A stretch of 64,000 bases of DNA. Source: Eledone cirrhosa. Taxonomy: Eukaryota. This document shows positions 58,429 to 59,859 of the stretch, piece after piece; positions within the stretch are counted from its first letter, which is position 1; every line of letters starts with the position of its first letter. The position numbers and the translations under genes were made by a program. The notes under the pieces are model-generated. The model had not been told where the DNA came from, did not search any database, and worked only from the letters and a program-made list of their open reading frames with translations. The stretch lies in the NCBI GenBank assembly GCA_964016885.1, contig OZ024747.1, positions 54,622,001 to 54,686,000 on the forward strand, written 5' to 3'.

Positions 58429-58656
58429 TGCACACACACACACACACACACACACACACACACACACACACACACACACACACACACACACACACACACA
58501 CACATACACACACACACACACACACACACACACACACACGTCCATATATATATATATTTCGTATCTCCAAAGAAATACGGTTTTAGGAAGCTGTGGCTAT
58601 GCAAACACCGGGGAGCTAACGCCCTCTTGTGATGTCCAGCAGAAGCAAGGGGGACA

Positions 58657-58700
58657 ACCGTCTATGCATTTCAGGCTTAACTGGCCTTCGTCAGAACGGT
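58657..58700 (-). ncRNA. Canonical minimal type I hammerhead ribozyme
   Basis: Minus: ACCGTT-CTGACGA-AGGCcagttaaGCCT-GAAA-TGCAT-A-GACGGT; palindromic stem III ATGCAT, AUA triplet; distal pairing TGTCCAGCAG/CTGCTGGACA extends stem I. Confidence 0.88.
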
Positions 58701-58744
58701 CCCTCCCACCGCTTGCGACTGCTGGACAAGAAGACAGGCGAGAA

Positions 58745-58793
58745 TATATAGTTTTCTCGTCTGTGTAAATGAGGTGATTAATCTCATTTGCAT
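58745..58793 (-). promoter_or_regulatory. Putative snRNA-type promoter (octamer, PSE-like, TATA)
   Basis: Minus: ATGCAAAT-8 nt-TCACCTCATTTACACAG...(27 nt)-TATATA, 44 nt upstream of the hammerhead; repeated on + at 58973-59021. Confidence 0.5.
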
Positions 58794-59089
58794 ATGAAGC
58801 TGCATAAGTTGGCTCAACTTATAATAAAAAAGAAATAGGATTTCGCTTCAAGCATAGCTTTATACAATATGTATAAATATTTCGTATCTCCAAAGGAATA
58901 CGGTTTTAGGAAGCCGTAGCTATGCAAGCGTCTCTTTTTTATTATAAGTTGAGCCAGCTTATGCAGCTTCATATGCAAATGAGATGAATCACCTCATTTA
59001 CACAGGCCAGAAAAGTATATATTCTGTTGAAGCTATGCTTGAAGCGAAATCCTATTTCTTCATATATATACATATATAAATATTTATAA

Positions 59090-59243
59090 CAATGAGGGTG
59101 TGGTAAGATACCAGATGGACCATAACGCACCAGAGTACTCAAAACTAAGAGTCAGGGCCCGACGGATGAGATCCGGCCGTTTCGGCAGCTAGATTCCGAA
59201 CTACCTGTCGGAGCGCAGCTGTCGAGATCCTGCTTCTTTTTCT
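59090..59243 (-). mobile_element. Divergent relative of fold-back family A
   Basis: Tail TTGAGTACTCTGGTGCGTTATGGTCCATCTGG..TCTTACCACACC shared with family A; GCCGAAACGGCC core; only a short fold-back. Confidence 0.7.
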
Positions 59244-59372
59244 ATATATATATATATATATATATATATATATATATATATATATATATATGAAATGAAA
59301 AATGAAATGAAATTTCGTTTCATTTTTTCCGTTTATCGTTTTCGGTGCACCCGGCCGATTAACCCACTCGAT

Positions 59373-59420
59373 ATGCAAATTGGGCTACTCAGCCGTTAAT
59401 ATGCATAAGGTAAGTATATA
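59373..59420 (+). promoter_or_regulatory. Putative snRNA-type promoter (octamer, PSE-like, TATA)
   Basis: ATGCAAAT-8 nt-TCAGCCGTTAAT...(26 nt)-TATATA, 26 nt upstream of hammerhead stem I. Confidence 0.5.
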
Positions 59421-59446
59421 CGTTCAACAATCTGGCAGGAAGGTAT

Positions 59447-59489
59447 ACGTTGCTGACGATAGCTAATAAGCTTGAAACTACTACAGCGT
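59447..59489 (+). ncRNA. Minimal type I hammerhead ribozyme
   Basis: ACGTTG-CTGACGA-tAGCTaataAGCTt-GAAA-CTACT-A-CAGCGT; stem I extended by AAGG/CCTT, CTGGCA/TGTCAG and GTTCAACA/TGTTGAAC. Confidence 0.8.
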
Positions 59490-59859
59490 TCCTTTGTCAG
59501 TGTTGAACAAACGAGCAACGATGGTTGCTCGACACTACGGCTTAATACGGGATGTTTGTTTTTTTACAAACACACCGAGCATTATAATAAATGTTCGGTG
59601 AATCCATACGTGCATATATATATGTGTGTATGTATGTATATATATATATACATACTACTGTACGTCTGTATACATATATGTATGTACGTGTACATACTTA
59701 TATTTAAGTAACAGCCGTACTAAGAGTGGGAAATGAAATTTCGTTTCATTTTTTCCGTTTATATATATATATATATATTTATATATATATATATATATAT
59801 ATATATATATATATATATATATATATATATATATATATATATATATATATATTTATATA

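Follow-up and report, generated by a model that had tools for sequence, protein, structure and literature searches.

Two short repeats, E1 and E2, lie close together in the window, i.e. the stretch of 64,000 nucleotides of Eledone cirrhosa DNA that was analysed as a whole. They are best explained as retrozymes which are likely transcribed from a built-in snRNA-type promoter, probably by Pol II, and which Penelope-type enzymes, probably from the Hydra clade, likely paste into (TA)n tracts. To this reading, which is drawn from sequence comparison, we assign a probability of about 0.55. Its promoter part can be graded separately: that the cassette of octamer, PSE-like block and TATA-like box has a promoter function of some type is probable, and the odds that it is an snRNA-type Pol II promoter are slightly better than even.

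Features of E1 and E2 in the window

The features of E1, of E2 and of the repeat between them are the following.

58554..58927, minus strand: E1 retrozyme sense arm; one 323-nt unit (58556-58878) after a 5'-truncated partial unit
58635..58726, minus strand: E1 predicted type I hammerhead with extended stem I, from core motif and folding
58745..58750, minus strand: E1 TATA-like box, 27 nt from TCA
58764..58777, minus strand: E1 PSE-like block (TCACC...), a weak match to the host Pol II PSE
58786..58794, minus strand: E1 octamer TATGCAAAT
58826..58831, minus strand: E1 T6 tract, 33 nt upstream of the octamer
58933..59061, plus strand: E1 inverted arm; lacks the ribozyme by deletion and terminates at the tail site in (TA)n
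59085..59242, minus strand: family X repeat fragment, TA-targeted, between E1 and E2 and part of neither
59292..59761, plus strand: E2 retrozyme in (TA)n; 59313-59738 is one 426-nt unit, flanked on either side by short partial copies
59323..59328, plus strand: E2 T6 tract, upstream of the octamer
59372..59380, plus strand: E2 octamer TATGCAAAT
59389..59402, plus strand: E2 PSE-like block (TCAGCC...), predicted to be the 3' arm of a hairpin as well
59415..59420, plus strand: E2 TATA-like box, 26 nt from TCA
59422..59508, plus strand: E2 predicted type I hammerhead with extended stem I, from core motif and folding

An earlier sequence-only reading had proposed repeat periods of 323 nt for E1 and 426 nt for E2, identically spaced cassettes in both, and co-oriented CUGACGA hammerheads with a long stem I in non-coding elements within (TA)n; all of this was borne out. 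The E1 cassette on the minus strand reads ATGCAAAT-N8-TCACC, followed by TATATA 27 nt from TCA, and the E2 cassette on the plus strand reads ATGCAAAT-N8-TCAGCC, followed by TATATA 26 nt from TCA. The cassette pattern matches three times in the 64-kb window, compared with 0.01 matches expected from shuffles. No ORF of at least 150 aa overlaps E1 or E2, and (TA)n surrounds both. In the same reading, an inverted, internally deleted arm of E1 had gone unnoticed. With this arm, E1 is a composite spanning 58554-59061, in which the 3' end of the sense arm lies in (TA)n and the inverted arm holds a third cassette at 58972-59024 (octamer 58972-58980, TCACC 58989, TATA 59016).

Each sense unit of E1 and E2 contains CUGACGA, a 4-bp stem II, GAAA, a palindromic helix III and a long stem I. 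In E1, the core occupies 58694-58688 on the minus strand, GAAA lies at 58672, helix III is formed by AUGCAU and cleavage is predicted after 58663 (AUA); in E2, the core occupies 59453-59459 on the plus strand, GAAA lies at 59474 and cleavage is predicted after 59483. The z values of the two hammerhead folds are -2.7 and -3.4, respectively. Core, stems I-II and palindromic helix III are kept in 30 of 34 E1 copies and in 45 of 56 E2 copies. The E2 copy of the window has CTACTA in helix III in place of the palindrome CTAGTA found in most copies; its predicted ribozyme is therefore probably impaired. An Rfam scan found no hammerhead in E1 or E2, neither at gathering score nor with the cut-off relaxed to E<=10, so that both ribozymes are called from core motif and folding; the hits that did appear at E<=10 were dismissed as TA-repeat noise. 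The whole monomers are highly self-paired, with 63-74% of the circular fold paired and z values between -7.4 and -11.8.

Families, copy number and conservation of the cassette

Relatives of E1 are 94-97% identical (2052 first-look candidates in the genome) and those of E2 93-98% identical (535 candidates). In the 3.0 Gb of genome that were searched, a pattern built to exclude E1 and E2 matched 28,045 times (2 for the control), mostly in E2b, a relative of E2 of about 484 nt, and in E3, a third family of 466 nt. A pattern for E1, E2 and intermediates matched 7,230 times (0 for the control), the two match sets overlapping in part. The units are 323-484 nt long and dispersed as monomers to multimers; tandem arrays comprise 8 or more units in E2 and 30 units in E3.

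E1 and E2 had been taken to be unrelated, and downstream of TATA their direct alignment is marginal only (z 3-4). This assumption has to be given up, since older copies bridge the two families: the alignment of E1 with L234 gives a z of 13, L234 with L238 12-16, L238 with L242 23, and L242 with E2 16-18. E2 and E3 align at z 18-19. Judged by sequence, E1 and E2 have diverged as two families within a single large group of protein-free tandem repeats, and because the older copies chain both families, the cassette common to E1 and E2 is inherited and not convergent. A decayed copy (L166:1461-1720) with octamer-N8-CCAG, TATA and a hammerhead-like core aligns to no other family (z of 4 or less) and is possibly a further old family.

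The proposal that the cassette is conserved across families found support: all eight element types show octamer-N8-YCAS with TATA 24-27 nt from YCA, and the stretch from octamer to TATA is intact in 29 of 34 near-full copies of E1 and in 45 of 56 of E2. Across five divergent families (E1b, E2b and E3, found without an octamer query, and E1 and E2, originally picked for having the octamer), no other invariant run is as long as TATGCAAAT, CTGA and GAAA included. With 59 of 246 columns invariant, a run of nine has a p of about 5e-4 if columns are independent. L303, a sixth older copy found without the octamer query, keeps octamer, TCAG and TATA.

Comparison of E1 with four sequencing runs (small-share or other-organism) gave no contigs. 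In two runs of unrecorded kind, E1 was covered in 26/30 and 30/30 bins, which says nothing on expression. A metagenome scan for the cassette together with CTGAYGA gave nine matches, none of them with a placed GAAA or family likeness, and these were taken as chance.

Comparison with snRNA promoters of the host

All four host U6/U6atac promoters compared carry TATG[CG][AT]AATKAG at -76 to -78 with TATA 46-48 nt later. The 13 distinct U1/U2/U5 promoters carry YCAGT at -55 to -58 and have no proximal octamer; in 12 of them, a TATA-like word follows 23-28 nt after YCAGT. Since TATA-like words occur in both classes, TATA alone does not decide the polymerase in this host. According to PMC1761439, TATA selects Pol III in vertebrates, and in flies the PSE sequence selects.

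The octamer word of the elements matches the host U6 promoters. In E1, 12 of 12 letters of the octamer region equal TATGCAAATGAG at -76 of one host U6 gene, and as in the U6 genes, the TATGCAAATKRG word is located about 73 nt upstream of the expected start. The remainder of the cassette is like the Pol II genes for U1, U2 and U5, with a YCAG word and TATA 24-27 nt later. From octamer to TATA, the distance is 40-43 nt in all eight element types versus 46-48 nt in host U6/U6atac, and the host Pol III PSE word ([AGT]CCT at +14) is not in register in the elements. Consequently, the U6-type Pol III layout originally suggested for the cassettes was not upheld, as PSE-like word and TATA distance follow U1/U2/U5. 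None of the host U1, U2, U5, U6 and U6atac genes compared has both a U6-type octamer and the Pol II YCAS-TATA spacing; a gene with both may exist among U4, U11, U12, U3, RNase P/MRP, 7SK and tRNA-Sec.

The elements are unlike host snRNA genes in that they lack the distal TTACCTCCCT word, their block forms a dyad and no 3' box was found in the units (best scores 1.0-5.4 vs 6.2-17.1 in the host). The AATTA word of host Pol II promoters at about -88 is not kept, and T5-T7 tracts lie between the ribozyme and the next promoter in four of four units. A comparison of the PSE-like block with host snRNA promoters, as recommended by the sequence-only reading, gave a divided result. When older copies were scored with a Pol II PSE matrix, 6 of 19 fell inside the host leave-one-out range (9.3-18.0); these 19 were chosen by a pattern fixing octamer and TCAS and have ancestry in common. 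Of them, 11 reach p<0.05 on PSE columns outside the search pattern, and 14 keep a TATA-like word 24-27 nt on. In contrast, the young families E1, E2 and E3 score -2.2, 1.9 and -5.2, less than every one of the 13 host genes.

Two observations concern the host genes themselves. Their U1/U2/U5 promoters (L091-L129, L171-L177) carry TATA-like words near -30 and AATTA near -88, in which they differ from the Pol II snRNA promoters of vertebrates. U1, U2 and some U6 genes have a distal TTACCTCCCT-like word near -255 in common.

Insertion structure and putative mobiliser

The 3' ends of 58 of 76 E1 and 61 of 77 E2 insertions are at two fixed sites about 50 nt apart. The T6 tract of E1 is the site of one of these two usual ends; that of E2 recurs at 59749-59754, which is the 3' end of the insertion in the window. 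The 5' ends are spread across the unit in both families, and an inverted arm of the same family adjoins 155 of 248 5' ends (four families). Partial tandems, inverted 5' arm, tail and (TA)n target are Penelope-type marks; together with the fixed 3' ends and the lack of an ORF, they agree with the earlier suggestion of non-autonomous retrozymes mobilised in Penelope fashion. Used as a proxy for the start site, the 5' truncation points (70 E1 and 100 E2 ends, some of them alignment-edge artefacts) showed no pile-up at the start or at the cut site.

At one locus, L161, a 5'-truncated E2 arm stands head-to-head with a 5'-truncated Penelope RT-endonuclease arm. The junction has 2 nt of microhomology and no TA; both arms reach their own family 3' ends in (TA)n, and each is about 95% identical to its relatives. 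This chimera probably indicates a Hydra-clade Penelope as the mobiliser. It is one of 248 ends, and the join could be a later deletion between two neighbours.

RWK is present in a relative of the Penelope arm of L161. A related, Hydra-like family (L325-L332) has a 3.8-kb unit with an intact 745-aa ORF, a long AT-rich 3' UTR and a hammerhead in the pLTR; its copies are 98-99% identical, and the family is apparently active. The ORF contains the Hydra-clade motifs DKT, CxCx5C and RWR, a variant of RWK, the assignment being made by motifs. The reference was the description in PMC8557442, where the Hydra clade has a C-terminal GIY-YIG, RWK, DKT, a CxCx5C linker and no CCHH. Among the Penelope pieces, Pfam named only a Neptune GIY-YIG fragment. 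Neptune-like elements of this genome likewise target (TA)n.

Family X, which has a second copy at 60535-60726, is short, with head-to-head arms and two 3' ends. It has matches in 58 of 392 loci (overlapping loci counted), and no full-length copy was found among the 392 loci compared. At L364, family X is joined head-to-head to an E2b arm, which suggests that both were moved by the same mobiliser.

Proposed mechanism and alternative explanations

The putative promoter would consist of a U1/U2/U5-like PSE and TATA spacing plus a U6-like octamer. Transcription from the promoter of one unit would start about 30 nt after TATA, which is near 58720 on the minus strand for E1 and near 59445 for E2, and because the units have no 3' box, Pol II would read through the next unit, promoter included. 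Successive ribozymes would cut this read-through RNA and release a full monomer that is able to circularise. Since transcription of multimers and their cleavage would keep the promoter in the monomer, a promoter of the upstream type could be inherited through RNA. A Penelope RT/GIY-YIG would then prime at the two fixed sites and go around the template as it copies, from which partial tandems, long arrays and arms joined head-to-head would result.

Two alternatives keep the cassette but assign it another role. That it is a U6-type Pol III promoter, with leaky read-through of the T tracts yielding a rare full monomer, is unlikely. An octamer context equal to that of host U6, the presence of TATA, which selects Pol III in vertebrates (PMC1761439), and a downstream T5-T7 tract in all four units, located at one usual 3' end, fit this proposal; the shorter distance from octamer to TATA and the Pol III PSE word out of register do not, and TATA does not separate the classes in a host whose U1/U2/U5 genes carry it too. 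Moreover, T5-T7 tracts would stop Pol III, and an RNA that stops there would contain neither the promoter nor the second ribozyme, whereas the insertions hold whole units and arrays. It is rather unlikely that the cassette is kept mainly as an RNA structure or as a protein-binding site on RNA, the repeats being transcribed passively from host genes or neighbouring promoters. This idea draws on the predicted folding: the cassette forms a hairpin in 24 of 24 element copies with 5-8 octamer bases paired, which was not seen in four host U6-type promoters, 86% of cells are paired in 18 aligned cassettes, the TATA word also lies within a predicted hairpin, and the whole unit is self-paired. However, covariation is no higher than in shuffles (147 of 500, with 14 of 18 rows pattern-selected and three out of register). 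The pairing partner of the octamer drifts, no octamer pair changes on both sides, and lost pairing is in no case restored by a change in the octamer. The AAT of the octamer is often left unpaired, YC falls in the hairpin loop, and the spacing to TATA equals that of host genes. The block of E1, like that of E2, doubles as the 3' arm of the predicted hairpin with the octamer; as the 3' half of the PSE is the partner of the octamer, pairing may partly explain its likeness to the host PSE. Promoter and RNA-hairpin constraints on the cassette probably coexist.

We regard it as quite improbable that the cassette is an ordinary mRNA-type Pol II promoter, i.e. a POU site plus TATA with an incidental PSE likeness. 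Octamer and TATA are the best-kept words, the young families, which are the most amplified, match the PSE poorly, and a 3' box is missing, all as such a promoter would have it; against it, sequence and distance in the older copies agree with the host PSE. Very improbable is an origin of the units as detached pLTRs of a coding Penelope family outside those sampled. In Xenopus, 24 of 57 retrozyme families are homologous to repeats, nearly all of them Penelope termini, as given in the accessible text of Li et al. 2026 (bioRxiv 10.64898/2026.07.22.740005), and the coding Penelope families examined in full at their 3' ends number two. For these two, one Hydra-like and one Neptune-like, the claim that the monomers are not pLTRs of long coding elements holds: E1 and E2 have no RT or GIY-YIG ORF, none of six full-length Hydra-like elements contains the octamer, 30 Hydra and 30 Neptune 3' regions are octamer-free except for two matches in neighbouring E1 copies, and no coding sequence upstream of the units is common to the 248 5' ends.

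The reading of E1 and E2 as retrozymes with an snRNA-type Pol II promoter can be extended, with odds clearly below even. An ancient retrozyme group may have captured a hybrid snRNA promoter, kept it as DNA promoter and RNA hairpin, and spread to roughly 30,000 sites, riding on Hydra-clade Penelope enzymes able to use retrozyme and coding RNA in one twin-primed insertion.

Relation to known systems

Non-LTR retrozymes are described as tandem repeats of short, highly self-paired units that are non-coding and have a single type I hammerhead apiece; they occur in coral, mussel, axolotl and frogs, and Penelope-like elements are their proposed mobilisers (PMC7229834; bioRxiv 10.64898/2026.07.22.740005). 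Like these metazoan repeats, E1 and E2 are short, non-coding, tandem and self-paired, with a predicted hammerhead per unit and arrays of tens of units. They are unlike them in the putative internal promoter and the cephalopod host, which are absent from the descriptions in the accessible text of both sources; in the main text of PMC7229834, the terms 'octamer', 'cephalopod' and 'Pol III' have 0 occurrences. A joint retrozyme-Penelope insertion such as L161 is likewise not part of the accessible text of Cervera and de la Pena 2020 or Li et al. 2026.

For Penelope-like elements of the Hydra clade and Neptune, partial tandems, an inverted 5'-truncated arm, a tail, (TA)n and a hammerhead have been reported (Craig et al. 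2021, PMC8557442). E1 and E2 share with them the form of insertion, the (TA)n target and a hammerhead, here predicted; they differ by the lack of RT and GIY-YIG and by ribozymes and a cassette that are not those of the coding families examined.

For newt satellite 2, Pol II transcription of a hammerhead repeat from an snRNA-type promoter within it has been reported (Coats, Zhang and Epstein 1994, as cited via PMC2220036). E1 and E2 are similar hammerhead repeats with an internal snRNA-type promoter, here predicted from sequence. The newt promoter reportedly comprises octamer and PSE; set beside this amphibian satellite by description and not by sequence, the repeats studied here show in addition a TATA-like word and a U6-like placement of the proximal octamer. 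As newt satellite 2 is an amphibian precedent, the surprise is limited: non-LTR retrozymes, their proposed Penelope dependence and an snRNA-type promoter in a hammerhead repeat are already known from the sources cited. A promoter of such kind in this lineage was not found described in the literature, and subscription journals and the supplement of PMC7229834 may describe one.

In the accessible literature, the transcription of animal retrozymes and the enzyme that moves them are left open; here, promoter, start site, polymerase and partner clade are predicted. A working promoter would mean that this genome holds tens of thousands of mobile SNAPc/POU sites, which could compete with transcription or seed it. 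If the capture of a hybrid promoter is true, it would, together with newt satellite 2, amount to a recurrent capture of snRNA promoters by retrozymes, and to a SINE-like class based on snRNA promoters, in which an upstream promoter is carried through the RNA cycle.

Further observations

Other hammerhead-like cores in the window are located at 61999 (plus strand) and 4005 (minus strand) in Hydra-type pLTRs and at 8281 (minus strand) in a Neptune-type pLTR; a decayed Neptune 3' fragment lies just left of E1 (57815-58400, minus strand). Long ORFs of a non-LTR retrotransposon, with two RT-bearing frames according to Pfam, occupy 38200-43573 on the minus strand, and an AP-endonuclease/RT non-LTR element (Pfam), split across frames, occupies 45145-50630 on the plus strand.

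Elsewhere in the genome, a composite (L162:2996-3722) lies next to a Hydra-type arm; its E1 arms continue directly into E2b fragments with no TA between them, by template switch or deletion. Promoterless U6/U6atac copies in or beside (TA)n tracts (L074, L187, L188, L195) are possibly retrocopies made by Penelope enzymes. In a U6 array on C19 (L064:153-650), each unit has a second U6-type promoter (octamer variant, TCCT, TATA) before a stretch without Rfam hit, which is a candidate for an unannotated Pol III small RNA gene.
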